In this document: piece after piece, positions 33,833 to 53,586 of the stretch
How the letters are laid out: each line of letters opens with the position of its first letter
Numbering within the stretch: position 1 is the stretch's first letter
Source of the DNA: an uncultured Actinomycetes bacterium
GTDB lineage: Bacteria; Actinomycetota; UBA4738; HRBIN12
DNA: 64,000 bases
Direction of reading: 5' to 3'
Assembly (NCBI GenBank): GCA_963751665.1
Contig: CAVVVF010000009.1
Span: 107,344 to 171,343, forward strand
The notes under the pieces: generated by a model
Told to the model about the DNA's origin: nothing
Seen by the model: the letters and a program-made list of their open reading frames with translations, nothing else
Databases searched by the model: none
Position numbers and translations under genes: made by a program

Positions 33833-36624
33833 CTAGTCGAAGAAGAGCGCGAGCTCCGTGCGTGAGCGGACGCCGAGCTTCGCATACGCGTGTGAGAGGT
33901 GGCCCTCGACCGTCCGAACGCTCATGAAGAGGGCATCGGCGATCTCGCGATTGGTCCTTCCGGCGGCAGCGAGCTTCGCCACGCGCGTCTCGGCCTCGGT
34001 GAGCTGCCCCGCGGCGGATCGTCGGCCACCGATCCGGGCGAGCTCAGCGCGAGCCTTGTCGGCCCACAACGGAGCACCGAGCCGCTCGAAGATCGCCAGG
34101 GCCTCCTCGAGCGCCTCCCGCGCGGGCCGCTTCTGTTTGGCACGGCGCCGGATCGTGCCCAGGACCAGCATCGTCCGGCCGAGCTCGAAGGGCATGGGCA
34201 GGCGCTCATGCTCCTTCAGCGCCCGGTCGAGAGAGGCGAAGGCGGTCTGGAAATCGCCATCTGCGGCGGCAAGCAGGCCGCGGTAGCGGGCTGCGACCGC
34301 GAGCGCCCACGGCCGGTCGAGGGCCTGGCCCCGTTCCTCGAGCCAGTCCAGGACTTCGACGGGCTTCGTCATGCTGGCCCAGTTCGATCAGGGCTTCGGC
34401 GTGATCGGCGACGAAGAAGAACATGGCCGGCTCCCCGATACCCCATCCGCGGTGGAGTTGCCACGCACGCGCGAGGTGTGTGTTCGCGCCGGCGGCACGC
34501 CCAAGCGAAAGCTCGACGAGCCCCAGCGTCGACCGTGCGACGATCTCCGTAAATCGGTATCAGCTTCGACTAGGGATTTAGCAACCTGTTCGGCACCTGC
34601 CGTGGCGGTTTCGATGTCGCCCACGTAAGCTTCCAGGTCTCCCATCTGACCCAGCAGCGTGTCGTCCGGGCGCGACGCCCGAGCGTCGACTGGCGAATGG
34701 TGCGTCCGAGCGAAGCTTCCCAGTTGCCCGCAGCAAGTTCTATCCGACCCAACTCGATTGTGCAGCCTCGGCGATCGAATCTTCGACTCCCATCGCGTTC
34801 GCATCGTCCAGGAGTGCGAGCGCAGATTTCCCTGGCCTCGTCGAGATCCCCTGCCCAAAGACGTCTGGTAAGCGCGGTCCGCGCGTGGTCGGCCGCCGAC
34901 GAAGAACTGGCTTGGATGCTTCCCTCCAACATCAAGGCGCGCTCCATAAGACTTGCCGAGATCTTCTTGCCGAGCGCCGCTTGCATCGCAGATCATGGTG
35001 CTGAGCGCTTCGAACGAGCGAGGGTGGGTCTGCATCGAGCTCTGCTAGCTCGAGGGCTTCTCTCGCGTGCCGCTCCGCCTCTTGGAGGTCGCCCCAACCA
35101 CCACACGGCCCAGCGCCCGACATGCGTGGATCACCACTGAGTACCTTCCTTGGGACACCACCCTCGCATGAGGGCGTCCGCGAACGCATTCGACGCTCCA
35201 CGGTCGTCGTCTAGGCGTTGGAGGACCCGGCCGAGGACGCAAAGAGCGCGTCCGCTCGTTCCGGACCGGGTTGAGCATCCATCACGACCGGCTTGAGGAG
35301 TTGCTGCGCGCGTTGAGCGTCGCCAGCAAGGAGAAGGTAGTTTGCGGCTGACATCTTCAAGCGCCGCACGGCGGATACCTCCTCGAAAGGCGTGAGCCGC
35401 ACGGCCAACTCACAGAGCTCGGAGGCCGCAATGGGCGAACCTCGCAGCGACCGCTGCCTGAGCTGCGACTTCGAGGGCGGCGGCCGCTTCCGGGTCTGGA
35501 TCATCCGTGCCCAGTGCGAGGTGCCGGGCGCGTTCCTCCGGATCTTCGATAACCTCCGCGAGCTGTCGATGGACTCGGTGCCGATGCTCGCGAGATGCTT
35601 CAGCGTAGATCGCTGAGCCGTACAAGGGGTGCGTGAAGCTCACCCCGTCACCGTCGATTTCCACGATGCCCGCATCCACCGCTTTCGTTAGATGCCCGGC
35701 CACATCCGTGGATCCAGCCACCGCCTCGAGCAGTTCGACGGTTGGTCGCGAGCAGGCCGACGCGTACAGCAATATCTCGCGGTTGGAGGAGGGAAGAGCT
35801 CTCAGCCGGTCGCGGAGTAGGTCTTCCCGCAGTGTCTGCGGGACGGGAAGCGCCGCCCCTGTGGGGCGCAGCTCCCCCCGCAGTTCAGCTCGGGCGATCT
35901 CGAGGGCGAAGAACGGATTGCCGCCCGACATCTCGTGCAGGCGCTTGAGGGTCGGACGGGGGAGGCTGGCGCCGAGTCGGGCGTGCAACAGCACGCCCAG
36001 GTCGTCGACGGACAGCGGCTCCAGACGGATCCGAGCGATTCGGTCCTCGGGGAACGCCCGAGACAGTCCGAACGGAAGCGCCGCTCCGGCTTCGCGCCTC
36101 GCAAGGAGGAGCCCGATCGGCTCGCTCTCCAGCCGGCGGACCGCGAACCCCAGCGCTGAGGCGGTGGAGGGATCGAGCCACTGCACGTCGTCGAGCGCGA
36201 TGAGCACGGGACCCGCAGCCGCTGCCTCACGAAGCGCGGTCAGCACGGCCGCGGAGACGGCTCGCGCGTCGGATGACGAGCCCTCCTCGGGCCCGGCCCT
36301 GAGCAGTGCCACCTCGAGGGCGTTCCGCTGGGGGTCGGGGAGGGCCTGGATCACGTCGTCGGATGCTTCGAGCAGGTCGGCCAGGCCGGCGTACGAGAGC
36401 TTGGCCTCGGACTCGGCGGGCCGGGTGGAAAGCACGCGCCAACCGCGCTCGGCCGCGGCGGCCACGCCCCGTTTCCACAGGGTCGTCTTCCCGATCCCGG
36501 ACTCGCCCTCGAGCAGGAGGACGGCCGGGCCGTGGGCGACATCGTCCATGAAGGCGTCGAGCCGGGAGAGCTCGTTCCCCCTCCCGACGACGCGGTCCGC
36601 GCCCGAGGACGAGACTGGAGTCAT
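33833..36624 (-). CDS. LAL-type regulator (AAA/NACHT-like ATPase + TPR-like middle + LuxR HTH), multiple frame changes
   Basis: N-terminal Walker A GESGIGKTTL and ..LIALDDVQWLD... C-terminal ..LTEAETRVAKLAAAGRTNREIADALFMSVRTVEGHLSHAYAKLGV... The 34.4-35.5 kb middle is recoverable only piecewise from three frames. Confidence 0.7.
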
Positions 36625-36713
36625 CGCGGAACCGGCCTCATGCTGGCCCGAGGGTTTCTCGCGGTCAACCCGCCCCTATCCGGGCCTGTCGCCGGAGTGT
36701 TACAACCGGCCCC

Positions 36714-38935: not shown

Positions 38936-40972
38936 TCAGGCGAAGCCGATCTTCGTCACGAACGCATCGCGGTCGCCCTTGTTGACCTCTCCCTCGAACG
39001 CCCCGTGGGTCTCGCCGGCCACGTAGGCGGCCTCCGCGCTCGCGGCGAGGGCCGATCCAGTGTCGAAGTCGCCCGTCCCGAACTGGGTCGTCCACAGTTG
39101 CACGCCACGGGCGTTGTACTTGGCCAGGAACGCGTCGGTCTCGCCGAGCAGGGTCTGGTCGGGGATGGCTCCGTCGGTCGAGCCGGCGACGAAGATCCCG
39201 TCGGCCGTCACGTCCACCCCGTGGACGTCGTCGGTCCCCTGTGAGCCGAACTGCCGCGTCCACACCTCGTTGCCGCGGTGGTCAAGGCGCCGGACGAACC
39301 CGTCGATCCCTCCCTGCGCCACCTGCTCCGGGAACGTCCCGTCGGTGGAGCCCGAGACGTAGATCGCCGAGGGCCCGGCGGCAACGCCCCGGATCCCGTC
39401 CGTGCCGGTGGTGCCGAACTCGGACACCCACCGCTTGGCCCCGTTCGGCCGGTACGCCGTGACGAACGCGTCGAGCCCTCCGGCGCTCGCGTGCTCGAAC
39501 GCCCCGTCGGTCGAGCCTGCGACGTACACGCCGAGGAAGTCCACGGCGACGGCGCGGACATCGTCGGTGAGCGTTGTCCCCACCTGCTTCGTCCACAGCT
39601 CAGTGCCCGTCTGACTGTACTTTCGAACGAAGCCGTCCACGCCTCCCCGACGGGTGTCGCCGAGCCTGCCGTCGGTGGTGCCGGCGACGTACACACCCCC
39701 GGCGTTCACGGCCACGGCCAGGGCCCGGTCGTCCCCGGTCGAGCCGAACTCGCGGGTCCACAGGACGTCGCCCCGGAGGCTGTAGGCCCGGACGAAAGCG
39801 TCGATGCCCGCCCGATGCTTCTGCCCGTGGAGAGCCCGATCGGTGGAGCCGGCCACGAAGATGGTGCTCCCGGTCGCGGCGACGGCGAACGCCTGGTCGA
39901 TCCCGGATGTGCCGAACTCGTCGGTCCACAGCTCTCGGCCCTTCGAGCCGTACGCCCGGACGAAGGCATCGGTCCGGGCTCGGAAGTCCTGGCCGGGGAG
40001 GGCAAGGTTCGTGGACCCCACGACGAAGACCCGGTCGGCCGCCTCGGCCAGCCCCAGGGCCAGGTCATAGCGCAGGGTCCCGAACTCCTCGGTCCATTCG
40101 GGCTTGGGTGCTGGCGTGACCGAGCCGCAGCCAACGTGGGCCACCAGGCAGTCCGCCACGAGCTGGTCCAGCCTGGGCTGCTGCCAGGTGTTCCAGAAGT
40201 CCGCGTGCAGGGTGTAGTAGGCGCCGCTCGAGAGCGTGAGGCCGACGGTCCCGTCCGGGTTCAGCGGGTTCATCACCCCGAAGTGGATCCGCTCGCTGAC
40301 CCTCGCCAGCACGTGGTCGAAGCCCGAGGGACACGCTCCTCCGACCGGGTAGACGACGTTGGAGGGCTCGAGGCCGACGCCGTCCCAGCAGTTGGGGAGG
40401 TCCACCACCCCGACCACGCCATCGACGAACCGGTACTGCGCCCACGGCCCGCAGTCGTACGGTGCATCCATCTTCGGCGTCTTCACCGAGACCGTCTCTC
40501 CGCAGTACCAGAACACGTGAGGGTTCTCGGCCGGGGAGAGGGCATCTTTGTTGCCCCCGATCACCTTCAGGCCCTGGGGGATCGTCTCGACCGCGACGTC
40601 CTTCACCCCCAGGTAATAGATGCGCATCACCGGCGGCTTGATGGTCACGCCGCCGACGGACGCCGTGGGGGACCAGTACCCCGCGGTGTCGCTGGGGATC
40701 CGGCAATTCGTGGCCCCGGCGAGCATCGACGCCTGCGTGGAATTGGCGTTCGTCGTCTTGTTGCCGAAGAAGTCGTGCATGTGGGAGGCACCGGGCTGGC
40801 CGGGGAAGACGATGGGATCGTCCATGGCCGCGTGCGAGAAGCGGCACCGGACCCAGAACTGGCCCGCCGGCTCGTCGGCCCCGGCCCCTGACGGGACGAG
40901 CGCCGCGAGCACCGCGAGCATCGCGATCGAGGCAAGACGGCGAGAACGCGGTCCGATCGGCTTCCTTCGCAC
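38936..40972 (-). CDS. Secreted DUF1996 domain protein with about 8 C-terminal SBBP-type beta-propeller repeats
   Basis: GTG at 40972 after GAGGGGG. Signal peptide. ..FWVRCRFSHAAMDDPIVFPGQPGASHMHDFFGN.. (DUF1996). The repeat unit is DAFV..Y...G...WT..FG..G.D......(V/A)...G.YVAG.TDG. Confidence 0.7.
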   Translation of the reverse strand: MRRKPIGPRSRRLASIAMLAVLAALVPSGAGADEPAGQFWVRCRFSHAAMDDPIVFPGQPGASHMHDFFGNKTTNANSTQASMLAGATNCRIPSDTAGYWSPTASVGGVTIKPPVMRIYYLGVKDVAVETIPQGLKVIGGNKDALSPAENPHVFWYCGETVSVKTPKMDAPYDCGPWAQYRFVDGVVGVVDLPNCWDGVGLEPSNVVYPVGGACPSGFDHVLARVSERIHFGVMNPLNPDGTVGLTLSSGAYYTLHADFWNTWQQPRLDQLVADCLVAHVGCGSVTPAPKPEWTEEFGTLRYDLALGLAEAADRVFVVGSTNLALPGQDFRARTDAFVRAYGSKGRELWTDEFGTSGIDQAFAVAATGSTIFVAGSTDRALHGQKHRAGIDAFVRAYSLRGDVLWTREFGSTGDDRALAVAVNAGGVYVAGTTDGRLGDTRRGGVDGFVRKYSQTGTELWTKQVGTTLTDDVRAVAVDFLGVYVAGSTDGAFEHASAGGLDAFVTAYRPNGAKRWVSEFGTTGTDGIRGVAAGPSAIYVSGSTDGTFPEQVAQGGIDGFVRRLDHRGNEVWTRQFGSQGTDDVHGVDVTADGIFVAGSTDGAIPDQTLLGETDAFLAKYNARGVQLWTTQFGTGDFDTGSALAASAEAAYVAGETHGAFEGEVNKGDRDAFVTKIGFA

Positions 40973-41098
40973 CGCACCCCCTCGAATCAGGCCCTTCCGA
41001 TCAGGCGCCGGTCGGGCGCCCAGATCGCGGACCTGGCCAGCATAGACAAGGCCTCGGCGGTGGCAAGCATCCCCGCCGAGTCTAGGTACGATCGCGTA

Positions 41099-41837
41099 GT
41101 GACGCGACCGATCAGGGCGGCGCTGGCGTTCGTGGCGTGCACGGCGCTCCTCGTTCCGGGCCCCCAGGCGCTGGGTTCCGCAGGGCAGCATGCAGCCCGG
41201 CTCGTCGACCCGTCCTCGCTGAAGCCCACCATCGTGTGGAAGAAGATCCCGTTCGGCGCGCAGCGCAAGCGGCAGATGGCGGCGTACTCGAAGCGGCATT
41301 ACGGCGAGCGCACGTGGGAGCTCACCGACCCCCACGTGGTGGTTGAGCACTACACGGACGGGCCGTCGTTCTCGAGCGCGTGGAACACCTTCGCCGCGAA
41401 CAGCCTGCACCTGGGCGAGATGCCCGGCGTGTGCTCGCACTTCATCGTCGACACCGACGGCACCATCTACCAGCTCGTGAACTTGGGGATCCGATGCCGG
41501 CACGCCATCGGGATGAACTGGACGGCCATCGGCATCGAGATGGTCGGGACGAGCGACCGGGAGATCCTCGACCGCATGCCGCAGCTCCGAGCCGCGCTCA
41601 AGCTGACGCTATGGCTGCTTGCCAAGTTCGGGATCGAGGTCCGAAACGTGATCGGGCACGCCGAGACCCTGATGAGCCCCTATCACCACGAGCTGTATCC
41701 GTCGTGGCGGTGTCTGACCCACAGCGACTGGCAGCACCGCGGACATGCGGATCTTCCGGCGGAAGCTGAAGCGGATGGCCAACCAGGCCGGGGTGCCGAT
41801 CGGCCCGCGGCCGCAGTGGGTCGACCCGAACTGCTGA
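41099..41837 (+). CDS. N-acetylmuramoyl-L-alanine amidase (Amidase_2/PGRP type; frame change near 41745)
   Basis: Signal peptide. ..VVVEHYTDGPSF..CSHFIVDTDGTIYQLV..HAIGMNWTAIGIEMVG..VIGHAE... Confidence 0.7.
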
Positions 41838-41854
41838 GAGAGCGAAACGAGAGA

Positions 41855-41890
41855 CGAGCCTCGGGACGCACGGGTGCGTCCCGAGGCTCG
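41855..41890. terminator. 16-bp perfect hairpin between convergent genes
   Basis: CGAGCCTCGGGACGCA cggg TGCGTCCCGAGGCTCG. No clear U-tract on either side. Confidence 0.4.
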
Positions 41891-41912
41891 CCCTCTCGAT
41901 GGAACCCGCTCG

Positions 41913-42405
41913 TCAGGCGCCGGTGCCGATCTCCTTGGCGCTCTGCTCCATCCGGTCGCCGGCCTCCTCGACGCGTTCGCCGGCCTTCTGGATCTTGCGG
42001 CCGGTGTGCTCGACGACGTCGCCCGTCTTGTAGCCGGCCTCAGAGGCCTTCTCGGTGCCCTGTGCGGCCATCTCGTCCATCTGGCCGCGCATCTCGTTGA
42101 TCCACCCCTTGACCCGGTCGAAGGCCCCGGTGCGGGTGCCGACGGCGTAGATCGCGCCGGCCGCGAGGAGCAGCCGGAACACGCGGAACCGGCGCTTCTT
42201 GGGCTCCTCCACCGTGAACTGCGGCCTTCTCCAGCAAGTCCATGACGCGCTGACGCTCGGAGCGGTTCTCCTCGAGCTCGTCGCGGAGCACGCGGTTCTC
42301 CGCCTTCAGCTGCTCGTTCTGGGACTCGGCCCGATCGGCCTTCATCTCCATCATGCGCTGCCTGGCTCCGCTGCGCACGCGTTCCATCCTGCCCGTGATG
42401 TCCAT
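41913..42405 (-). CDS. Coiled-coil / single-TM / YtxH-like small protein (frame change near 42225)
   Basis: MDITGRMERVRSGARQRMMEMKADRAESQNEQLKAENRVLRDELEE.. joins ..EEPKKRRFRVFRLLLAAGAIYAVG..GWINEMRGQMDEMAAQG... Confidence 0.45.
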
Positions 42406-42536
42406 GATCGCCCTCCTTAAGGAGACGTCCCGTCCTCCCTACCGTACCCCTTGGGGCCTGCTTCTACCCATCGGTTTCCACAGGCTGGGGCACGGGTACA
42501 GGACGCACACAGACCGCCAAGAAAAGGGGAGACGAG

Positions 42537-42986
42537 ATGCCCGACCAGCGGGACGAGGTGCCAGACCACCAGAGCAAGCACCGACGGCCCACGTTCGATC
42601 GGTTCGCCACCCTGGCCGCCCGATGGATGGGTCATGGCCTCACGTTCGGGGTCGCGGTCCTGTTGACGCTCGCCTGGGCGCTCTCCGGACCCATCTTCCA
42701 TTTCTCCAATGCTTGGCAGCTGATCATCAATACGACCACCACGGTCCTCACCTTCCTCATGGTCTTCCTCATCCAGAACACGCTGAACCGGGATTCGGCC
42801 GCCATCCACGTGAAGCTCGACGAGCTGATCCACGTCACGGAGCAAGCCCGGGATCAGTTGGTCGGGGTCGAGCACCTCGGGGACAAGGAGCTCGAACGAC
42901 TCCGTCAGGCCCAAGAGGATGGTGCGGTCTCCGAGGTCTCGAACGACCGGTCGCGGGTGACGACCCCTCGTCAGTTCACGGCCTGA
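42537..42986 (+). CDS. Low-affinity iron permease (Fet4-like) family protein
   Basis: ..FDRFATLAA..GPIFHFSNAWQLIINTTTTVLTFLMVFLIQNTLNRDSAAIHVKLDELI... Confidence 0.7.
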   Translation: MPDQRDEVPDHQSKHRRPTFDRFATLAARWMGHGLTFGVAVLLTLAWALSGPIFHFSNAWQLIINTTTTVLTFLMVFLIQNTLNRDSAAIHVKLDELIHVTEQARDQLVGVEHLGDKELERLRQAQEDGAVSEVSNDRSRVTTPRQFTA

Positions 42987-44103
42987 GCCGGTAGAAGCGC
43001 AGGAAGTCGTGCTCGACCTGGTCGAGGATCTCGACCTCCTCGAACCCCGCCTCGCCGGCGTACCGCCGGAACGTGTCGGGACGCATCACGGTACCCGTCC
43101 CCACTGAATGCTCCTCCGACAACCCGGCCGGAAGGCACACCAGGAAGCTGAACCCGTACATCAGCCGTTCAACCGGGTCACCGGGGGCGGTGAACGACTC
43201 CGCCACCTTCTCGTCGGCCACGATAGGGTCCCCGGGAGCCAGGCTGTCCCGGATCGCCGCGAGCACCTCGACCGGCCGGGCCATGTCGTGGATCGACTCG
43301 ATCACGATGGCCAGGTCGTACGGCCCTCGTTCCCGAGGGTGGCACCGTCGCGGACCTCGAACCGGACCCGGTCGCTCACCCCGGCCTCTTGGGCGAGTCC
43401 CCGCGCGATCTCGACGGAGGACTCGTCCGGGTCGAAACCGTCCACCCTCACCGTGGGATAGGCCCGGGCGATGGCGATGGAGGCCCAGCCCACGCCGCAA
43501 GCCACATCGGCCACGCGGGCCGGTGGGTCGGACTGGAGACGCTCGTGGACGTCGGGGATCGACGGCAGGTACTCGGTCCCCAAGAGGCTCAGGATCCACG
43601 GCCGGTTGAAGTCTCCCTGCGACTCGATCATGTCCGGACCGAAGGCGGACCACGGAACGCCCCCTCCGTTCGCGAACGCGTCCATCAGCTGGGGAGCCGC
43701 CTGGATCGCCGCCACGAAGGCCCGGGCCAGCGGCGTGATGGAGAACATGCTGTCCAGGTCGATCAGGGCCTCGGCATGGGCCGGGAGGAAGCGAGTACCT
43801 TCGCTCGCCCTCCGGCTTCGCCTGGTCGTCGACCTCCAGGATGCCCGTCACCGCCTGCTGCTCCAGCCACTCGCGAGCGTACCGCTCGTGGATGCCGGCC
43901 CGGGACGCGAGCTCCGCAGGTGTCGATGCACCGGAATCGGCAAGCGCCCGATAGAGCCCCAGGCGGTCACCGAGGTACACGGCGACCATGTCAACGGCGC
44001 CCAATGCGGCCTCGAACAGCCGCTCGACCAGAGCCGCGGTCCTCTCCTCGTCCATGCTCACGGGCGAAGCTTCGGTCGGATCAGTCGTGCTTTCCATCGT
44101 CAT
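42976..44103 (-). CDS. Class I SAM-dependent methyltransferase with N-terminal winged-helix domain (about 2 frame changes)
   Basis: ..YLGDRLGLYRALADSGASTPAELASRAGIHERYAREWLEQQ.. / ..VADVACGVGWASIAIA.. (motif I) / ..YDLAIVIESIHDM... Confidence 0.7.
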   Translation of the reverse strand: MTMESTTDPTEASPVSMDEERTAALVERLFEAALGAVDMVAVYLGDRLGLYRALADSGASTPAELASRAGIHERYAREWLEQQAVTGILEVDDQAKPEGERRYSLPPGPCRGPDRPGQHVLHHAAGPGLRGGDPGGSPADGRVRERRGRSVVRLRSGHDRVAGRLQPAVDPEPLGDRVPAVDPRRPRASPVRPTGPRGRCGLRRGLGLHRHRPGLSHGEGGRFRPGRVLRRDRAGTRPRGRGERPGPVRGPRRCHPRERGPYDLAIVIESIHDMARPVEVLAAIRDSLAPGDPIVADEKVAESFTAPGDPVERLMYGFSFLVCLPAGLSEEHSVGTGTVMRPDTFRRYAGEAGFEEVEILDQVEHDFLRFYRLRP

Positions 44104-44143
44104 CGTGTCTCCCCCCCGATCGGATGCTGAATGTATACGCAGG

Positions 44144-44232
44144 TGGCGGAGGCGAAGGTTACAGCGTACGAACCGGGTGAGCCCGGCCCAGAGCTCTGGG
44201 TGGGGGGCCATTCGTGGGGCCGAGTGGCCTGA
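44144..44232 (+). repeat. 90-nt module copy R1 (89 nt, 1-nt deletion relative to R2)
   Basis: TGGCGGAGGCGAAGGTTACAGCGTACGAACC..TGGGTG..TGGGGCCGAGTGGCCTGA. About 87% identical to R2 by hand count. Confidence 0.8.
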
Positions 44233-44350
44233 GAGGGTTGCCGCTCTCACCAAAGGGTTAGGCGGGTGAGCGGCCCCATGAGGTTTCCATCAGGCGGACA
44301 CCAACCCCGAAGGATAGTGCACGCCCTTCGTGGACGAGAGGTCGATATGG

Positions 44351-44386
44351 AGCATGCCGCCGCAGTCAGGACGACGGCGGCATGCT
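44351..44386 (-). terminator. 12-bp hairpin downstream of the DsrE-like gene
   Basis: AGCATGCCGCCG, a 12-nt loop, then CGGCGGCATGCT. No U-tract. Confidence 0.3.
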
Positions 44387-44424
44387 GGCAAGGGCGGGTT
44401 GAGGACGCATCAGCCCAGCTGCCA

Positions 44425-44790
44425 TCAGGCGAACGCCACCGCCTTCGCGCCCGCCACGATCTCCTCGACGACCTTTGCGGCTCCAACGATCGTGGCTCCC
44501 TTGACCACGTGGTCCTCCGTGATCCCCCGTGGCTTGGTGCAGGCCCCGCACAGCCAGACCTGCCCTCCGTTCTCGATGAACTCCGTGTACAGGTCCGCCA
44601 AGACCGGCAGCCCCTCGTACGCGATTCCATCGGTGCCGCCCTGGGCCCCCAACCAGACCGCGTCGATCGTGCAGAGCACCACCGCCTCCTGCCCCGCTGT
44701 GGCGGCCACGTTCGCGGCCACGAAGGGCAGCGTCGCCCGCTCTGGGTCTTCCTTACCGTGCGTGCAGGTGAAGATCAGCTTCTCGCTCAT
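44425..44790 (-). CDS. DsrE/DsrF-family sulfur-relay-like protein
   Basis: MSEKLIFTCTHGKEDPERATLPFVAANVAA..VWLCGACTKPRG... Confidence 0.75.
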   Translation of the reverse strand: MSEKLIFTCTHGKEDPERATLPFVAANVAATAGQEAVVLCTIDAVWLGAQGGTDGIAYEGLPVLADLYTEFIENGGQVWLCGACTKPRGITEDHVVKGATIVGAAKVVEEIVAGAKAVAFA

Positions 44791-45399
44791 TTCACTCGCT
44801 CCACTGTGATCTGGAGCCGCCCGTCATCGAGCGACTCGACCGAACGAACCGTGTTGCCCAGCAGCCGTGCCAGGGGAGGGAGCTCCTCCTTCGCGGCCGG
44901 ATCCCGGGTCGCCACGACAAGCGCGTCACCCACCGGGATGGCCCGGATGCGGCGCCGGAACTCCTGAGCCAGCCCATCCGCGCAGCCCAGCTCGCCGGCG
45001 TCGAAGCGGTGGACGTCCCCGGCCTCGGGTTCGGCGACCGGTCGGAACCCCGAACACACCAGGTCGATCCGCTCGATCCGCCCATCGTCGACGTCACAGA
45101 AGGCCTAGCTGTTCGATGACCGCCCAGCCCTCCTCGTCGTGCAGACGGAACCGATAGCTGATCCGGAGGCGGTCGGCCACGTCCTCCGCGCCGCTCCCCT
45201 CGACCTCGAATGCGTCGGGCTCCTCGAACCAGCTTCTGAGCTGATCCGTGACCGCGGCGGCGCCGCTCAGCTCGCGAAGGCCGCCCGGCAGCAGCCCACG
45301 GAACCGGATATCCGGATCAAGGCTCGCCTCTACTCCCTCGAAATCGCGCGACGTGAGCGCCTCCAGGAACGCCTTGCCCGGGATCTGCTGCCCCTCCAC
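44787..45399 (-). CDS. NTF2/SnoaL-like domain joined to a TusA-like domain (frame change near 45100)
   Basis: ..FLEALTSRDFEGVEASLDPDIRFRGLLPGG..GWAVIEQ / ..AFCDVDDGRIERIDLVCSGF.., then ..FDAGELGCADGLAQEFRRRIRAIPVGDALVVATRDPAAKEELPPLARLLG... Confidence 0.55.
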
Positions 45400-45513
45400 T
45401 CCTCTTCACCTCCTCCCTCGTCGTGACAGACGTGACGTTAGGTCGGTGAGAAGCATCGAGGAACGGCGAGATTGCCGTATTTCCGGGGTTCCGCCCCCGA
45501 ATCTCCGAAGCCC

Positions 45514-48395
45514 CTACCCGGCCGCGGGCTCCAGAAGACCGAGCTCCTCCGCCTTCCGCACCGCCTCGAGGCGCGATCGGCAGCCGAGCTTGGCGAGGAT
45601 GTTGCGGACGTGCATGTCGACGGTCCTGGCGCTGAGGAATAGCTCGCGCCCGATCTCCCGATTGGTCCGGCCCAGCTCGAGCAGACGAATCGACCTCCAG
45701 CTCGCGCCTGGAGAGTCCACCTCGCTCCAGGTCTGCGAGAGCCCTCCGGCCGAGCCGCCGCTCCACCTTCTCTCCCAGTGACGCCAGCTCCTCGACCGCA
45801 CGGGCCGCGAGGGGTCGGGCCTTCAGCTTTCGGGCCGCCCGGTATGCGGACACCAAGTGCTCGATCCCACGGTCGCGTCTTCCGGCGGCGACGAGCGCCA
45901 CAGCCGCCCGCACTTGTATCTCCGCACGATCGTGCGGAACGGTGAGCCCGGAGAGAGCGTCGAGAGCCCGCTCGAAGTGGCCCGTGGCACGCTCCCCGTC
46001 GTCCTCCATGAGCGCGATCTCGCCCAGGGCGTGGGCGAGCGCTGCAACGGTCTCCGACGTGCCACCGGTGGCGGCCATGCTGGACAGCAGCTCCGCGCAC
46101 GCGGCGGCTTGGGCCTGCTCGCCTCGTCGAGCGAAGAACGTCGTCGCCCAGCGGAGCGCTTGGCACGGAATAGTGTCGCTCCTCCTTGGCCCAGCACCGC
46201 TCCACCAGTTCGGTGGCTCGCTGTGCGGCCGAGACGTCCTTCCCTTCCAGGTCATCCAACCGGGAGAGTCCGAGTAGACCGTGGATCTCCATCGGGAAGA
46301 GCTCGCTGGCCCGACCGAAGGCAAGCGCGGAGGCGAGCAGCCGGCGAGCGGACTCCGTCTCGCCGCGCAGCGCGTGGATCATCCCGAGCTCCACCATCGC
46401 CGCGTGGCGGGCCACCGGTGGCGCCTGGGCTTCATTCAGAACCTGTCGGCATACGGCGACCGCTCGATCCCACTGGCCGATGTGCATGAGGACCGGGGAA
46501 AGGCAGGCGAAACACACCTGAGCCGCGTCTCGGAGGTCCTTCGCCTGACAGAACTGGAAGGCCGCGGTGTACGCATCGATGGCCGCCGGGTAGTCTGGCG
46601 AGTTCTCGAGCGCGTCCGCCATCAGGAAGTAGGCCTGGGCCGCCACCCCGGGCAGGTCATGTGCGAGGGCCAGCGAAAGACCCTCGCGGCAAAGCTCCAC
46701 ACCTGCGCGACCTTGCCCGAGCTTGGCCCGCACGCCACCCTCGATCGCTAGGGAGAGTGCCCTCAGGTCCGGACGGCCGGCTCGCTCGACCTCTGAAGCA
46801 GCGACGGTGATCAGATGGAGTGCGGCGGTCAGATCGCCGGCCGATCGGAGATGAGAGGCAGTGGCCAGGCGCTCTGAAGCAGCCTCGCCGGGTAGGCCTG
46901 CCCGCGCGAACTCCTCGGCCGCGCTCGCGCGCGCCGCAAGCGCCCGCTCCCAGTTGGCCTGGAGCTCATAGAGGCTTGCAAGGCGGCGTTCTGCCTCCGC
47001 AAGGGCTTTGCTGTCGCGAGTGGCCCGGCGGCCCTCCGCGACTTCCTCATACGCCCGAATAGCCTGGGAAAGCTCGCCGCACAACTCCGCGCACTGCCCC
47101 AGGCGCTCCACTGCGGCAAGCCGTCCGGGCTCGTCCTCACCTTCGGGCCAGACTTCGAGCGCCCGGCGAAGGGCGCGAGCCGCCTCCCGGTAGCCATGAA
47201 GGGCGAAGAACGATTCGGCGGCGGCGAGGAGCATCGGTCGGGCCCGACGGGGTTCCCGAGCGGCCACCCAATGCTCGGCGATCGCCCCAGGCGGCGCGCC
47301 CAGAGCCTCGAGGCGTTCGCCGAGCAGACGATGGTGAGCGCGCCTTCTCGTCCAGGGAATATCCCGGTACAGCGCCTCTCGAACCAGGTCATGGTGAAAG
47401 GCCGCGGCCCGGTCGAGCGTCTCGACAAGGAGTCCTGCCTCGATCAGCTCCTCGAGGTCATCGTCATCCACAAGGTCGTTGAGGACATCCGGATCGACGT
47501 GAGTCCCCGACGCCGCGGCGAGCTCCAGAGCCCTCCGGCCTCCCTCAGAGATCCCATCGGTCAGCAGGAGGACCGCGTCCCTGATCGTTTGAGGGAGCGG
47601 CACGTCCTCCGCCGAACGGAGATCCACGACCTCGCCCCCGTCTCGAAGTCGTCGGGTGGAGGCGAGGGCGGCCGTGAGCTCCTCGATGAAGAACGGAAGG
47701 CCCTCGGTGCGCTCGTAGACGGCAGTCGCCAGGGCGCTAGTGGGAGCCTTTCCGAGGATGCGGGCCACCAGCTCCGCTGTGTGCGACGCGTCGAGGGAGT
47801 GGAGGAGCACCTCCCGGAATCTGTTCGCTCGCCGCAACTCGGCGCGAAGCCGGCGCAGCGGATGCCCCCGAGGGATCTGGTCGGTTCGATAGGCGGCCAG
47901 GACGAGCAGTCGCTCGTCCTCGAGCGAGACCGACAGCCCGTCGAGCAGGTCGAGGGTTGCCTCGTCGGCCCGATGCAGATCATCGAGGAACACCACCGAC
48001 GCGTCGCGGCGGCCGATCTCGTGGAAGGCCCGCCGGATGGATTCCACCAACGTTTGCATGTCCGGCCGTTCCGGCGCCGAGCCGAGCTCGGGAAGAAGCA
48101 GCCCGAGGTAACGTTCGAGGGGTCCAACGCCCCGCAGGCCGTCGGGCACGGCCCGCAGGTACGCACGCAGCACGCCGACGATCGGTCCGTAGGGCGTGCC
48201 TTCCGGCGGGGCCGACCCTCGCAGAACGAAGAGCTCGCTGCGGGCGAGAACTTCGTCGGCAAGTCTGGTCTTCCCCACTCCTGGCTCGCCCGCGATCAGG
48301 ACGAGCCCGCCCTTGCCACTCCGAACCTCGGCCAGGACATCCGTCAGCATCGAAAGCTCTGCTTCCCGGCCGATCAGCTCGACCTCGTAGGCCAT
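45514..48395 (-). CDS. LAL-type regulator (ATPase + TPR + LuxR HTH), about 3 frame changes near the 3' end
   Basis: Walker A GEPGVGKTRL, ..VVFLDDLHRADE.., a long TPR-like region, and C-terminal ..LELGRTNREIGRELFLSARTVDMHVRNILAKLGC... Confidence 0.75.
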
Positions 48396-48512
48396 AGGGG
48401 CAGTGTATGGATGCCACGAACTCCCCGGCCAGGGCCGACGCGTCCTGGATCGGACCGATAGCACGAACCCAATCGGGGCTCCGGGCTCTCGGACGCATGT
48501 GCCTCCTACGCG

Positions 48513-48858
48513 GTGAACTTCCCGGAGGCGCGAACGACGCTTGAGGCGGAAGGTGATGCCCTGGAGGCGGAGCGAGATCTGGCACCGTCGTCCCCTTCGG
48601 CTTCGCTCCTCGGGGACATCCGGGGAAGAGTGGCTGAGGCGGTCGCGGCCAGCGGGCCGGAGCAGGTCAAAGAGCTCCTCGCTGCCGTTGTCAGCTCTGT
48701 CGTCGTGGAGTCACGCGCATCGATCCAGCCGTCCTTTCGTCGCGCCCGGTGTTCGTACTCTGGAACCTTCGCGGAGGCGAAGGGAACACTGTAAGAACCC
48801 AAACGCCCCAGGTCGGAGTGTGTGGGTGAGCGCCCGAGGGTGGGGTCCGCTCGGTTGA
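48513..48858 (+). pseudogene. 3' relic of a serine-recombinase-like gene (contains module copy R3)
   Basis: ..LEAEGDALEAERDLAP..RGRVAEAVAASGPEQVKELLAAVVSSVVVESRASIQPSFRR.. resembles the coiled-coil and C-terminal tail of large serine recombinases. There is no catalytic N-terminus and no start. Confidence 0.4.
48769..48858 (+). repeat. 90-nt module copy R3
   Basis: TCGCGGAGGCGAAGGGAACACTGTAAGAACC..TGGGTGAGC..TGGGGTCCGCTCGGTTGA. 64/90 identical to R4 by hand count. Confidence 0.8.
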
Positions 48859-48932
48859 CCGTTCGGCCGAGCTGACACCGGCTCTGGGGGAAGCCACCGA
48901 GCGGATCAGTGTTCGGCCTCGTATCGCAAGGA

Positions 48933-51412
48933 TCAAGCCTGCGTCTCGCCTGCATTCGTGACCAGGTTGATCAGCCGGTCAGGAACGAAGATCACCTTCC
49001 TCGGATCGCGATCCATGAGGTGGCGGCGAACCTTCTCCCTGCCCTTCGCTCGCTCGAGCGCGTGCTCCTTGCCGAGCCCGGCGGGCACTTGGATCCTGTC
49101 GCGGGTCTTGCCGTCGACCTGGATCACCAGTGTCACCTGAGCGTCGACAAGCGCGCGCCGGTCGAAGGCCGGCCAGCGCTGTTGGTGAACCGAGTACTCA
49201 CCGCCGATCCTCGACCAGAGCTCCTCCGCGAGGTGCGGGGCGAGCGGTGCTAGGAGCAGTACGAGCGAGCTTGAGACCCTGGCCCACTCCTTGCTCGACA
49301 TCTTGTCGCGCTCTCGCCGAGCCCATCGGCCAAGCTCCATGAGCGAGGCGATCGCGGTGTTGAACCTCATCTCCCCTAGGTCGCTCGCCGATCGCCGCGA
49401 TGGCTCGGTCCACCTGGCGAAGATCCACCCCGCCGCCTCCTGGTTCGTGAGGCTCAGTCACGAGGCGCCAGGCGCGTCGGAGGAATCGCTCGATGCCGGC
49501 GATGCCAGCGTCCGAGAAATCGCCGCCCTCATCCCACGGTCCGATGAATAGCAGGTACATCCGGGTGACGTCGGCGCCGTGCTCGGCGATATAGCGATCG
49601 GGGTTCACGACGTTCCCCCGACTCTTGCTCATCTTTGCGCCGTCTTTGGTGAGCATCCCGTGGAGCCGAAGGTGCGGGAACGGCTCCGCGAAGGGCACCA
49701 GCCCGAGGTCGTTGAGGGCGTGGGTTACGAACCGCGCGTACAGATGATGTCGCATGACATGCTCGGGCCCGCCCGCGTAGGAGTCCACGGGCAGCATCCG
49801 CTCGGTCCGGTTCGGGTCCCACGCTCGATCATGAACGTCACTCGAGGGATACCGCAGGAAGTACCAGGCAGAGTCAAAGAAGGTGTCGGAGACGTCGGTC
49901 TCGCGCCTCGCGGATCCGCCGCAGGAGGGGCAGTCGGTGCGCACGAAGGACTCGGCGCTGGCGAGAGGCGAGACGCCGGTGCCGGTCGGCCGGAAGTCGT
50001 CGACGTGGGGAAGGACGACGGGGAGCTCATCCTCCGGAACCGGCACCGTGCCGCAGTCGGGGCAGTACACGATCGGGATAGGAGGTCCCCAGTAGCGTTG
50101 CCGCGAGATCAGCCAGTCCCTGAGCCGGTACCTGACGACACTCCGGCCGGAACCGCGTGCCTCGAGCCATCCGGCGATCGCATCGCGAGCCGTTTCGGAG
50201 GGCATACCGGAGAACGGACCGGACTCGATCAGCACGCCCTCGCCGGTCCAGGGCCCGTCCCCTCGGGCTTTCGCATCCACGGGTGGCCGGATCACCTTGA
50301 CGACTGGGAGGCCGCTCATCGCCGCGAACTGGAAGTCACGCACGTCGTGCGCCGGCACGCCCATCACGGCACCGGTGCCGTAGGCCGCAACCACGTAGTC
50401 GGCGACGTAGATCGGAACTCGGTCTCCGGTGGCGGGATGGACGGCGTACGACCCTGTGAACGCGCCTCGTTGTGGAGGAAGCCCCGCCGCGCCGCTGCGC
50501 CCGAAGGCCGAGACACGGTCGCGCAGGGCCTCCTCGACGAATCGGCGAACGTCCGGCTCCATACCGGTTCCGCTCGTGAGCGCGTTGAGGTCCGGATGCT
50601 CGGGGGGCAGAACCAGAAACGTCACGCCGAACAACGTGTCCGGCCTGGTCGTGAACGCGCGAAGGTGGAGTCCTGGGTCCGGGACCTCGAAATCGATCTC
50701 GACACCTTCGGTCCGCCCGATCCACTCGCGCTGTGCATTCTTGGCCGACTCGGGCCAGTCGATGTGGTCCAGGCCTCGGAGTAGCTCCTCTGCATACGCG
50801 GTGATCCTCAGGAACCACTGCTGCATGATCCGCTGCACAACGCGGGTTCCGCAGCGCTCACAGCGGTCGCCCTCGAGCTGTTCGTTCGCGAGCACCGTCA
50901 GACAGGATGGACACCACACGACCGAGGCCTTGCGACGGACCGCCAGCCCCGCCCGGTACAACTTGACGAAGAGCCACTGCGTCCACCGGTAATAGGAGGG
51001 GTCGCTAGTCACGATCTCGCGGCTCCAGTCCCATGCCGCACCCAGGGATCCGAGCTGCCGCCGGTAGTTGGTGATCGTGCGTCTCGGTCAAGGTGCCGGG
51101 GTTCTCGCCGACCCTGAGGGCGTAGTTCTCGGTGTGGATCCCGAAGGAGTCAAAGCCGATCGGTTGGAAGACCTCCCGGCCCCGCATCTTCAGGTAGCGA
51201 CCGTAGGTGTCGGCCCCCGAATACGTGTATGCATGCCCGACGTGGAGACCCTCGGCTGAGGGGTATGGGAACTCGACGAGGTTGTAGAACTTGCGATCCG
51301 GTGGAACGTGCTCGACGTCGATCTCCCACAAACGAGTCGCGGCCCAGCGGGCCTGCCACCTCGACTCGATCGCTGACGGATCGTACCCGTCGTCCTCTGA
51401 TGGTGCGGTCAT
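48933..51412 (-). CDS. leuS: Leucyl-tRNA synthetase (frame changes near 51085 and 49385)
   Basis: ..FPYPSAEGLHVGHAYTYSGADTYGRY.. (HIGH-type), ..CERCGTRV.., ..KMSKSRGN.. (KMSKS), and C-terminal ..VTLVIQVDGKTRDRIQV... Confidence 0.9.
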
Positions 51413-51765
51413 GTGTGGGCCTCCCTGTCCTCAGGGTGATCGGGTGCACGCGATGAACGGCGCGGGGCCGCTGTGTCTACCCGGCGGAAGAGAGCTGACG
51501 GCTCCGAGGGAGACAGCCGAGGATGCCGCGAGCGCTTGACCGCGCTCGCGGCTACGTAAGGACGAGGGTCGCTCGACCGACCGCTCTGGTCACGCCAACA
51601 TTATGCGCTGCCGCGTCGCTGGGGGTCGGGCGTCTGATGCGAGGACAGAAGACCCTTGCCTATCGGCCTCAGGTCGCCGTCCAGGGTCTTCGGCTCAGCG
51701 ATCGGGCCCGCGCCCCGGTTCTTACAACTGTTCCCTTCGCTCGCGCGTTTCCGCTGGTCACGGCG

Positions 51766-51855
51766 TGGCGGAGGCGAAGGTTACAGCGTACGAACCGCGG
51801 TGAGCCTGGCCCGGAGCTTTGGGTGAGCACGCGTTCCTGGGGCCGAGTGGCTTGA
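51766..51855 (+). repeat. 90-nt module copy R2
   Basis: TGGCGGAGGCGAAGGTTACAGCGTACGAACCGCGGTGAGCC..TGGGTGAGC..TGGGGCCGAGTGGCTTGA. Confidence 0.8.
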
Positions 51856-52119
51856 GACATGGCCCGATTCTTCGCCGGCGGTCATGCGGCCGGAGCCGTG
51901 GGCGTAAAGGATCCGTGGGGATCCTGTCGCGGCCGAGTTGTCTCGCGACCGAGCCGTGCCGCTCCTTGCTTGACGATTCACGATCCGCCAACTGGCGGAG
52001 TCGGGCGGGTAGGCTTTACACCCTTCCTGACCTGGAGAGAGAGTGCGCCAGGCTTATCGAACTCGGCTCCCGGTCCGCCGTGGCCAGTCCGACTACTCAG
52101 GCCGACGCCGGCGGCTACG

Positions 52120-52932
52120 ATGCGCACGAAGGAGGGGCGCTCGATAAGGTACGCGGACGCAGGTGGTGTACGGATCGCGTACGACGACCAGGGACCCCGC
52201 GTCGATACGGCCGTGCTCTGCCTGACGGGGTGGTGGATGAATCGGGGTTTCTACGCCCCGCTCGCGGAGCGCCTGAGCGCTCGACACAGGGTGATCACGC
52301 TGGACTGGCGCGGGCACGGGGACTCCGGTCGACCACCCCAGGACTTCGGCCATGGGGAGCTGGCCGATGACGCGATGGCCGTCATCGAGGCGAGCGGCGC
52401 CCGCCGCGTTGTGCCGGTGACTCAGGCGCACGGCGGCTGGGCGGCGATCGAGCTCCGCCGCCGCCTCGGTGACCGGGTGGAGAAGATCGTCGCGTCAAGC
52501 TGGCTCGTGCTCGATCCGCCGCCGCAGTTCGCTGCCGTGCTGGAGGCGCTTCAGGACAAGGTGCGGTGGCGTGAGGCTCGCGAGCAGCTCTACTCGATGT
52601 GGTTGACGGGTGCTCCGGAGGGCGTCGTAGAAGAAATACGCCGGGAGATGGACGTCTACGACTTCGACATGTGCTCGCGGGCGGCGCGCGCGATCACGGC
52701 CGACTACGCGCAGTATGGAAACCCGCTGCGCACGCTCTCGGAGATCGATCCGAAGCCGAACACCCTGCACGTGTTCGCGCAGCCGCGCGCCCCCGAGTTC
52801 CTCGCAGCGCAGGAGGCCTTTTCGGCCGCGAACCCATGGTTCTCGGTCAAGCGCCTCGATGGGGTGAGCCACTTCCCGCCGCTCGAGCTGCCGGACGTGA
52901 CGGCGGCCGAGATCGAGCGCTTCATCGGATAG
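52120..52932 (+). CDS. Alpha/beta hydrolase
   Basis: ..LCLTGWW..LDWRGHGDS..VTQAHGGWAAIEL..GVSHFP... Confidence 0.8.
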   Translation: MRTKEGRSIRYADAGGVRIAYDDQGPRVDTAVLCLTGWWMNRGFYAPLAERLSARHRVITLDWRGHGDSGRPPQDFGHGELADDAMAVIEASGARRVVPVTQAHGGWAAIELRRRLGDRVEKIVASSWLVLDPPPQFAAVLEALQDKVRWREAREQLYSMWLTGAPEGVVEEIRREMDVYDFDMCSRAARAITADYAQYGNPLRTLSEIDPKPNTLHVFAQPRAPEFLAAQEAFSAANPWFSVKRLDGVSHFPPLELPDVTAAEIERFIG

Positions 52933-52989
52933 GGCGGAGCTTATTACGGCCTTGGCTCCCTCTACCTCCTGAATTAGATTCCTGTCATT

Positions 52990-53079
52990 CAGCGGAGGCG
53001 AAGGGAACACAATAAGAACCACGTAGCTCCGGGTCAGGGGGTGTGGGTGACCGCGAACGAGTGGGGTCGAGTGGCTTAG
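52990..53079 (+). repeat. 90-nt module copy R4
   Basis: CAGCGGAGGCGAAGGGAACACAATAAGAACC..TGGGTGACC..TGGGGTCGAGTGGCTTAG. Confidence 0.8.
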
Positions 53080-53586
53080 CTGGTTCCTGGAAAGCCCCCG
53101 CCTCTTCTGCCCAGACGAGCCAGGCGCCTCGATTTCTTGCGATTTCCCCTCCTCCACCTCCCTCTGTCCTCCCTCCGGCCTCGCCGTTTCCTGCCCGATC
53201 TCTCCCCCAGGAGACCCAAGACCAGCGGCTATGGACTAGAAGGAAGAGGGGTCCAGGACTCGCTGAAGCCGGCCGGGGGGAGACGTGGCGCCGTTGCACC
53301 CTCGCGCGCCTCGGGTGCGGACATATACGCTCGCCTCCCGCTCGATCCTGGCGACCACCAAGTCTTGTCCTGGGACCGGACTGTCAACCACGTCCTGGTA
53401 CCAGACAACGACCTCAGGCTCTGCACTGCCGAATTTGGCTCTACAGGATCAAGGGCGCCGGCTCACGCCGGCGCCAGCGGCCGGCTTACCCTCCGCTCCG
53501 AGCCTCCGGCCCTCCGACGGCGGCCGCCGACCGCGGCGGCGACGTCGGCTGGACGCTGGGCGCCTCACCGCGCAGCGAGCGCCTGC

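Follow-up and report, generated by a model that had tools for sequence, protein, structure and literature searches.

A repeated module in an uncultured actinomycete as the probable P' side of a serine recombinase attachment site at tRNA-Sec

A 64,000-nt (64-kb) stretch of an uncultured Actinomycetes genome (GenBank assembly GCA_963751665.1, contig CAVVVF010000009.1, positions 107,344 to 171,343; hereafter the window) carries four copies of a module of about 90 nt, all on the same strand. From comparison with related genomes, we consider these modules very probably to be the P' side of attP, the attachment (att) site of integrative elements of uncultured Actinomycetota that are moved by a large serine recombinase (LSR) and have, as their primary chromosomal target, the 3' terminus of selC, the gene for tRNA-Sec. 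The odd signal of the module, a first third that is invariant as DNA followed by a protein-like remainder, would thereby be explained as a half-site fused to the exchangeable end of the recombinase gene. A first-pass annotation of the window had proposed conserved tails of recombinase genes at an integration hot-spot, an idea that was partly right.

In the arrangement shown by the loci, the recombinase gene lies at the extreme end of the element and reads across attP. Its last codons before the predicted crossover form the P arm, this crossover is placed in the core GCG-GA-GGCG, the first 23 nt past the core constitute the mirror-image P' arm, and the next ~57 nt encode the last ~19 of the recombinase's 28 final residues together with the stop. 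Recombination with attB (selC flank joined to antisense tRNA-Sec) would carry the module over to the opposite end of the element, generating attL (flank joined to module), and would join the recombinase gene to the tRNA as attR, where the open reading frame (ORF) would end in RRRTGIEPAWELSPPHRF with a stop complementary to the Sec anticodon. The 5' third of the module would be fixed at the nucleotide level because it combines a predicted protein-binding half-site with the crossover; the 3' two thirds would be under codon selection while part of the recombinase gene (the attP state), and the repeats would look protein-coding because that gene runs across the site. Solo modules would then be footprints of earlier recombination, neither genes nor RNAs, and the four window copies would be footprints in an island whose recombinases were lost, bar a relic of ~135 codons.

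Conservation, edge and symmetry of the module

Related loci or contigs are labelled L, predicted proteins P, and the window W. A motif scan for GGAGGCGAAGGNNACNNNNTANGAACC in one genome per species returned 31 loci, nearly all in metagenome-assembled genomes labelled Actinomycetota, and a profile made from these loci recovered 53 full module copies on ~30 contigs of uncultured Actinomycetota. A metagenome scan using the recombinase alignment contributed 25 additional loci. Transfer RNAs were called with ARAGORN, domains with Pfam and RNA families with Rfam.

Across the 53 copies, the first ~33 nt are conserved at the nucleotide level and the last ~57 nt show codon periodicity. Over codons 10-28, column entropy averages 0.75 bits in phase 1, 0.89 in phase 2 and 1.39 in phase 3, and the base following TGGGT and the base following TGGGG each vary four ways. 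Codons 1-9 are near-invariant at all three positions, with a flat entropy of 0.26-0.33 bits and no periodicity. A stop stands at codon 29 in 27 of the 53 copies (TGA 23, TAA 3, TAG 1).

These features bear on whether the module could be a small structured RNA, or a free-standing gene for a peptide of ~28 residues, placed between genes. The GGAGG resembles a ribosome-binding site, the frame and stop are conserved, and the modules are intergenic. Against this, no in-frame start codon follows GGAGG, stops lie directly upstream in some copies, and the first nine codons vary in a non-synonymous style without periodicity. A doubled 28-aa query of the tail, searched against 5.8 billion predicted proteins, matched no more than 12 ORFs, all of them singletons of 38-98 aa whose N-termini are unrelated, which also disposes of a long non-recombinase protein bearing this tail. 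RNAalifold on the 53 copies gave -0.34 kcal/mol, 3 pairs and no compensatory change. Single-copy z-scores against shuffles ranged from -1.8 to +1.7 on both strands, the consensus of the four window copies was likewise structureless, and Rfam returned nothing relevant at gathering or relaxed thresholds. With neither a consensus fold nor an Rfam match, the structured element was abandoned, and we regard the RNA or peptide gene as extremely improbable. Coding on the opposite strand was rejected on a conserved TGA (from GGTCAG) in the right-phase antisense frame, and a promoter on the absence of the GGAAC motif from type A, one of the two module types described below.

The 5' edge of the module is uniform. 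All 53 copies start at the same base, and pairwise blastn comparisons show unlike left sides, with homology setting in exactly at the module's first base (L020/L028, L020/L026, L004/L009, L002/L020, L008/L025, L013/W and L017/W). The left flank is native tRNA-Sec (selC) flank in 18 copies and other DNA in ~25. To the left of one and the same module with alpha/beta-hydrolase cargo, L020 has a recombinase-relic P arm, and L026 and L028 have selC flank. A uniform edge at which homology starts points to the P' side of a recombination site after strand exchange and not to gene decay.

The alternative closest to the first-pass annotation is that each copy is the last 90 nt of a separate recombinase gene that was inserted and then deleted. 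Recombinase relics do precede modules in L001, L007, L009 and L020, and the window copy annotated at 48769 carries ~135 codons of one. Random deletion, however, would be expected to leave ragged 5' ends instead of 53 identical ones; in-frame stops stand directly before the module in L008, L014 and L019; and most copies adjoin non-recombinase sequence, including the 18 beside native selC flank, the window having a relic at 48769 only. Stumps of repeatedly inserted and deleted genes are very unlikely to account for most of the copies.

Comparison of junctions revealed the symmetry of the site. The final 23 nt of the recombinase gene ahead of the core make up the P arm, e.g., GGTTCTTACAGTGTTCCCTTCGC (read from L022, L052 and L059), and the P' arm of the module, GCGAAGGGAACACTGTAAGAACC, is its exact reverse complement. 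The two arms are separated by GGAG, with the symmetry centre between GG and AG, giving perfect 23-bp arms and a palindrome of ~50 bp, in keeping with the 40-50-bp imperfect inverted repeat around a central non-palindromic dinucleotide that is typical of serine-integrase sites. The B' arm is the start of antisense tRNA-Sec, GCGGAGGCGGACGGGAATCGAACCC, and the B arm (the "class 1" left arm) is the native downstream flank of tRNA-Sec, a nested hairpin followed by CTCCCCGATCTCTCCAC, found next to a real tRNA-Sec in L004, L018, L021 and L059. A census of junctions gave 6 of type B-B' (attB), 18 of type B-P' (attL), 17 of type P-B' (attR) and at least five of type P-P' (attP). These are the four site types that half-site exchange by a serine integrase produces around a short core; the only sequence common to all four is GCGGAGGCG, and the shared core GCG-GA-GGCG contains the predicted crossover.

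Measured from the centre, 52 of 57 P' arms have the start of the GAACC motif at +21, and 29 of 30 B' arms have it at +16; in the P arms, GGTTC starts at -25. In phiC31 structures, the zinc-ribbon domain binds 5 bp nearer the centre on attB than on attP (10.1101/2025.05.02.651858), and the offset between +21 and +16 matches this rule. The 5' third of the module thus resembles a tRNA T arm whose distal motif is displaced outward by 5 bp.

This likeness to tRNA admits another origin for the module, as displaced and decayed tRNA-Sec 3' fragments left by tyrosine-integrase islands at selC. Its first ~40 nt do resemble antisense tRNA-Sec (GCGGAGGCGAAGGGAA..GAACCCG versus GCGGAGGCGGACGGGAATCGAACCCG), and true tRNA-Sec 3' fragments of 34-60 nt occur in L011, L022, L023, L030 and L058. 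The displacement is, however, conserved in 52 of 57 copies and is not what decay would leave, the remainder of the module, with its codon signal, has no relationship to tRNA, the cargo examined contains no tyrosine integrase, and the module is mirrored in the end of a serine recombinase gene. We find this origin highly improbable. Nor is the module a tRNA-Sec gene or pseudogene: ARAGORN was negative, the likeness is limited to the antisense acceptor and T arm (~40 nt at the 3' side) with an expanded T loop, and the 5' acceptor strand and anticodon arm are absent from the module. The true fragments, at module-oriented positions 3726, 609, 5665, 7822 and 2780 of the five loci, respectively, are an observation of their own; several end at the anticodon loop, and their left side is a P arm, a "class 2" arm (described below) or selC flank.

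Two further features of the left arms were recorded. The selC downstream flank forms a nested hairpin (GGAGAG..GTGGAGTC-loop-GACTCCAC..CTCTCC) at L004 2100-2200, L018, L021 7680-7782 and ~20 module copies (e.g., L030 6360-6431). It accompanies the module in arrays, its stems vary by compensatory substitutions among copies (L019, L029, L030), and it probably represents the terminator of tRNA-Sec, lying on the opposite strand. A recurrent left arm ending in GAACAAGATTCGATTCCCGATC before GCGG lies at L013 4990-5038 and L023 285-331 and is a near mirror of the B' arm (16/19); the module that accompanies it is type A in one of these genomes but type B in the other.

The recombinase and its tRNA target

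The link between module and recombinase comes from reading frames that cross the module's left edge. Two of the 12 small ORFs that carry the tail, P0003 and P0006, read LKQLLAYVVDKIVVEGRDHIQPYFFVPGV and a final S ahead of the module, and L032 identifies sequence of this type as the end of an LSR with a zinc ribbon and a coiled coil. The LSR C-terminus (VVDKIVVEGRDHIQPYFFVPGV..S) enters the module in frame in P0003, P0006, L032, L034, L056 and L057, which bears out the earlier assignment of the module frame to a recombinase C-terminal tail. In L056 and L057, the modules entered are type-A-like and the tails read RRRTGKHTNPGAPGPTLWVTTQAWGRCS followed by a stop and LWVTTRGWGRVS, respectively. Recombinase homologues carry Resolvase, Recombinase and Zn_ribbon_recom domains and end in PYFFVPGVLTVFPS-RRRTGIEPAWELSPPHRF. 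The 527-aa LSR of L036 matches PF00239 (2e-41), PF07508 (3e-17) and PF13408 (6e-13) and has a coiled-coil match; P0019 has the same architecture. Intact recombinases of 504-527 aa were found in L036, L037, L038, L040 and L042, and an enzyme with Resolvase, Recombinase, zinc-ribbon and coiled-coil parts is encoded beside the site in related loci. A sequence search of the PDB with the L052 ORF, a query mostly out of frame, gave no match.

The tail of the RRRTGIEPAWELSPPHRF type is the antisense translation of the tRNA-Sec 3' half and ends at a TGA stop complementary to the UCA anticodon of tRNA-Sec (L046 2126-2218, L052 4655-4712, P0015, P0016). Tail isoforms end either in WGRVA or in TGIEPAWELSPPHRF, each followed by a stop. 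In L035, L044, L046, L051 and L058, the end of the recombinase gene overlaps a full-length tRNA-Sec encoded on the opposite strand. In L002, L003, L004, L018, L021, L029 and L032, tRNA-Sec is located to the right of the modules at a distance of 0.2-3.5 kb, again on the opposite strand. The integration hot-spot suspected from the window alone therefore exists in related genomes, on the 3' side of tRNA-Sec. A relative that is 45% identical (L053 7608-9193), with intact Resolvase, Recombinase and zinc-ribbon domains, overlaps an antisense tRNA-Ile(GAT) with its end; tRNA targeting thus seems to be a trait of a wider clade. As a separate observation, L035-L043 show the recombinase joined to a tRNA-Sec 3' half that continues into AT-richer sequence, and ARAGORN calls tRNA-Sec only in L035.

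Among known systems, the serine integrases of phiC31, Bxb1 and Listeria A118/LI are alike in having a Resolvase + Recombinase + zinc-ribbon + coiled-coil enzyme, an imperfect palindrome of ~50 bp around a non-palindromic central dinucleotide, and a short core as the sole common part of attP, attB, attL and attR, with a 5-bp attB offset. The elements described here differ in their tRNA target, in having attP inside the recombinase ORF, and in an LSR that is typical in architecture but distant, sharing no more than 32% identity with any phage integrase of the collection searched; their arrays also suggest reactions beyond attP × attB.

Myxophage Mx8 also targets a tRNA locus. In Mx8 IntP and SSV-type systems, the integrase ORF extends across attP and acquires a new 3' end upon integration (PMC6070905; PMC4383910). 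The elements described here share the ORF that crosses attP, with a serine enzyme in place of a tyrosine recombinase; only the last ~28 codons would be exchanged, and the tail of the integrated state is read from antisense tRNA-Sec with its stop at the anticodon complement.

The selC locus is a classical integration hot-spot (enterobacterial selC islands), and tycheposons are known as tandem tRNA-linked islands. With these and with Islander-type islands our loci have in common a variable island 3' of a tRNA, same-orientation end repeats, and tandem units of which many lack an integrase. The repeat here, in contrast, is a P'-type mimic with a 5-bp displacement and recombinase tail codons, not a tRNA copy, and the enzyme is a serine and not a tyrosine recombinase. 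A 2015 survey of tRNA-linked islands stated that no serine integrase was known to have a tRNA gene as its target (PMC4383910), and the tRNA sites used by mycobacterial prophages are those of tyrosine integrases (PMC10654092). As judged from these comparisons, a serine recombinase family with tRNA genes as attB appears to be the unusual feature; attP-crossing ORFs are already known from tyrosine integrases, and tandem tRNA-linked islands are common. No report of a serine integrase at tRNA-Sec was found in the literature searched, the coverage of which was incomplete. The att sites are short and precisely bounded, by the 50-bp palindrome for attP and by the junction of flank and tRNA-Sec for attB. 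Because they are short, bounded and obey the 5-bp rule, they are directly testable and might serve as new orthogonal integrase/att pairs.

Module arrays and non-canonical junctions

Modules typically occur as arrays of 2-4 copies per 8 kb in the same orientation, spaced 1-4 kb apart (e.g., L005, L011, L019, L020, L021, L028, L030), with genes between copies on both strands. The array cargo ORFs scanned encode a cyclase, a chromate transporter, a monooxygenase, a sigma factor, an MFS transporter and similar products, and no recombinase was found among them. Such recombinase-less arrays suggest that the recombinases of this family, or helpers, may act on hybrid sites. A further arrangement was noted in L008 5593-7355 versus L025 6104-7857 (module-oriented), where the gene-bearing segment following homologous modules is inverted at 80% identity, which suggests site-specific inversion between head-to-head sites.

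Several points weigh against the identification of the modules as P' sides of selC-directed elements. A canonical attP × attB reaction gives one attL and one attR, so arrays and chromosomal P-P' sites are not explained by that reaction alone; the flank-module arrays and internal P-P' junctions indeed exceed its products. Array units carry diverged selC flanks beside an unoccupied-looking flank-tRNA site (L021, L030, L059), ~25 modules have a left flank that is neither selC flank nor P arm, and the B arm (selC flank) lacks a clear mirror of the B' motif. The intact recombinases all belong to the type-A-like arm class (L036-L042, L047), with none of the type-B arm class recovered. The window itself contains neither tRNA-Sec nor its fragment nor an intact recombinase, its link to selC running through related contigs and one backbone block shared with L009. 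The evidence is comparative throughout, recombination itself was not observed, and many of the related contigs are short. Finally, the pattern that selected the first 31 loci fixes most of the 5' motif, so the invariance of the motif in those loci is partly imposed; L056-L059, found through the profile or the recombinase, keep the same arm in a more variable form.

The B-P' arrays and chromosomal P-P' junctions hint that the attP × attB restriction may not hold. The non-canonical junctions would arise either from hybrid-site activity, with cassette-like capture, or from deletion, inversion or homologous exchange. The LSR transposons Tn4451 and Tn5397 (TnpX, TndX) offer a comparison: their recombinase gene stands at the element end, their crossover dinucleotide is GA, and TnpX and TndX excise and insert without strict attP × attB logic, at many sites that are not tRNA-linked. 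Logic of this type would fit the non-canonical junctions.

Cassette-like capture can be taken further, in a reading that extends the integrative-element explanation and does not exclude it. Here, recombinase-less units (module + cargo + selC-type flank) would be mobile with the serine recombinase acting in trans, excised circles with a flank-module site would insert beside tRNA-Sec or another module, and arrays would grow cassette by cassette. Arrays of 2-4 flank-module units have no recombinase between them, and their flank copies are only ~65-80% alike, so that each unit seems to have brought its own flank. An unoccupied-looking flank-tRNA-Sec site lies to the right of the arrays in L021, L059, L004 and L018, a hydrolase unit and a methyltransferase unit recur in different arrays and break at the core, and the cargo consists of accessory metabolism and regulation. 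Opposing this, published descriptions have serine integrases needing a directionality factor before they act on hybrid sites, and a reaction of flank-module with flank-tRNA would set B against B and P' against B'. Circular forms were not seen, the cargo is distributed over both strands, and in alignments the right boundary of a unit is inseparable from general flank-copy similarity, the flanks being about as alike as the cargo. On balance, such an integron-like platform is possible but rather doubtful.

We would give no more than a similar, tentative weight to the broadest form of this idea, a serine-recombinase counterpart of the integron in which the 3' side of selC serves as a cassette-collecting platform, the tail swap as a sensor of integration state, and the enzymes form a tRNA-targeting family. 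If true, the GCG-GA-GGCG core would be the point at which recombinase-less units are captured, shuffled and passed from genome to genome. Each reaction would swap the last ~28 residues of the recombinase, from a module-encoded tail when the element is free to an antisense-tRNA-encoded tail when it is integrated. The enzymes would also provide a clear case of a serine integrase family targeting tRNA genes (tRNA-Sec, with a relative at tRNA-Ile). Integron arrays are alike in having short cargo units that are split by a one-orientation recombination site and mostly lack their own recombinase. They differ in that our loci have no IntI-type tyrosine recombinase, no RYYYAAC...GTTRRRY cores and no folded single-strand form, and carry cargo on both strands. 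An integron attC identity of the module itself was rejected: its arm ends (GGTTC.TAC ... GTA.GAACC) are opposite to RYYYAAC / GTTRRRY cores, no fold is conserved, cargo lies on both strands, and the genes scanned include no tyrosine recombinase. A miniature inverted-repeat transposable element or insertion sequence was likewise set aside, the module having one arm only, with its inverted partners outside and upstream; no flanking duplications were visible in the 53 aligned copies.

The window locus

The four copies lie at the positions given in the first-pass annotation and were recovered by nhmmer with E-values of 2e-21 to 8e-25 (Table 1). The invariant 13-mer GCGGAGGCGAAGG and the GAACC, TGGGTG and TGGGG blocks described there are present; the exact 13-mer occurs four times in the 64 kb, in the four copies only, and at up to two mismatches there are 21 matches in the window versus 8.0 +/- 2.6 in shuffles. 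Two module types are distinguished, type A (44146 and 51768, 78/90 identical, 87%) and type B (48771 and 52992, 65/91 identical, 71%), with cross-type identities of 64-69%. The two subtypes and the ~87% value thus stand as first described, except that the second and third copies had been labelled in swapped order relative to their coordinates and the weaker pair scored as 64/90. The frame with a stop at the same position, claimed for every copy, is intact in three (28 codons); a 1-nt gap breaks it in the 44146 copy (44144 in the first-pass numbering).

Table 1. Features of the module array in the window
Feature	Coordinates	Strand	Description
Copy 1, type A	44146..44237	+	Core GCGGAGGCG, predicted P' half-site GCGAAGGTTACAGCGTACGAACC, tail-coding part, frame broken; nhmmer E 2e-21
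Putative integrated segment	44146..48772	.	Type-A P' at left; type-A P arm and recombinase relic at right
Recombinase relic	48366..48780	+	C-terminal ~135 codons of an LSR gene, ending in P arm 48746-48772 GTTCGTACTCTGGAACCTTCGC
Copy 2, type B	48771..48862	+	nhmmer E 8e-23; census class P-P'; tail RRRREHCKNPNAPGRSVWVSARGWGPLG and stop
Segment from copy 2 to inverted type-B arm	48771..51767	.	Carries only leuS (- strand), split in three ORFs (Pfam)
Inverted partial type-B module	51705..51767	-	Core-like sequence and half-site GCGAAGGGAACAGTTGTAAGAACC, 27-nt spacer before copy 3
Copy 3, type A	51768..51860	+	Intact 28-codon frame, TGA stop; nhmmer E 8e-25
Copy 4, type B	52992..53085	+	Intact frame, TAG stop; nhmmer E 1e-23

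Copies 2 and 3 each have, directly upstream, a partial inverted copy of the first ~25-35 nt that the first-pass annotation did not list (- strand, 48749-48772 and 51705-51740, respectively). The first of these falls in the P arm of the recombinase relic, and the description of a relic at this place proved correct by tblastn: it matches residues 391-521 of the L036 LSR and residues 296-361 of P0019 (51% identity). The tail of copy 2 is in frame with this relic, reading RPFVAPGVRTLEPS directly before RRRR. The P arm at 48751-48772 is 91% complementary to the type-A P' at 44152-44173. Since the relic ends in a type-A P arm beside copy 2, 48746-48799 constitutes an attP-like P-P' junction.

The left flank of copy 1 is unrelated DNA, the start region of a - strand methyltransferase gene, and homology with L013 and L017 begins exactly at 44146 and extends to 44295. 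Within this homology, ~60 nt past the stop (44238-44295) are conserved in L013 and L017 and missing at the type-A copy at 51768. The second inverted copy matches model positions 8-45 (51740-51705, nhmmer) and forms, with its spacer, the left arm termed "class 2", an arrangement that at least eight further loci share, among them L002, L003, L008, L011, L023, L024 and L058. Copy 3 ends 3 nt before an ORF, the alpha/beta-hydrolase part of which begins ~260 nt further on (Pfam, residues 116-350). Copy 4 follows 57 nt past the hydrolase stop, with an unrelated left flank (census class "other").

With P' at its left end, cargo, and an LSR relic with P arm at its right end, 44146..48772 has the layout of an integrated element, and we infer that it may represent a single one; the type match of its P and P' arms fits. 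Its cargo, all on the - strand, comprises a 127-aa ORF, a TusA-like gene, a SnoaL-like gene and an AAA_16/TPR LuxR-type regulator (Pfam), and the same block follows modules in L016 and L022. An earlier DsrE label for 44247-44630 found no Pfam match, the TusA-like gene being its neighbour. The segment 48771..51767 may be either a mobile unit or native DNA enclosed by two sites; class 2 arms being type B in every case, the match in type between its arms carries little information.

The signature of a tRNA-linked island, with the tRNA at one end, its mimic at the other and an integrase inside, is incomplete in the window: ARAGORN called no tRNA there, no tRNA-Sec fragment is present, and no intact recombinase was found. 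The signature appears in related loci, as LSR joined to tRNA-Sec in L058, L035, L044, L046 and L051 and as arrays left of tRNA-Sec in L004, L018, L021 and L059. A 2.2-kb backbone block to the left of the array (40745-42955) is common to the window and L009, and the module-linked cargo of L009 is shared with L004 and L018, both of which end at tRNA-Sec. On the strength of the shared block and cargo, the window locus is probably the same island site.

Several genes of this assembly are split, including an Rv2258c-like methyltransferase (42976-44253), the AAA_16/TPR/LuxR regulator (45317-48464) and leuS (48933-51412, in three parts). The genes are spread over two or three reading frames each, which bears on whether the leuS between two att arms is functional. 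The splits could reflect long-read sequencing error or real pseudogenes, and with so many in the assembly the frame breaks in the window are not readable as pseudogenes.

Genes of an extracellular contractile injection system (eCIS) lie directly to the right of the array at 53973-59526 (-), with an eCIS core domain protein at 53973-55682 and a Pvc16_N protein at 57772-59526. Between them, the ORF at 55971-57551 resembles an AAA-type ATPase by eye and had no Pfam match. Two paralogous LuxR-type regulators (AAA_16 + TPR + GerE) lie ~10 kb apart at 33833-36675 and 45317-48464, the latter within the putative integrated segment.

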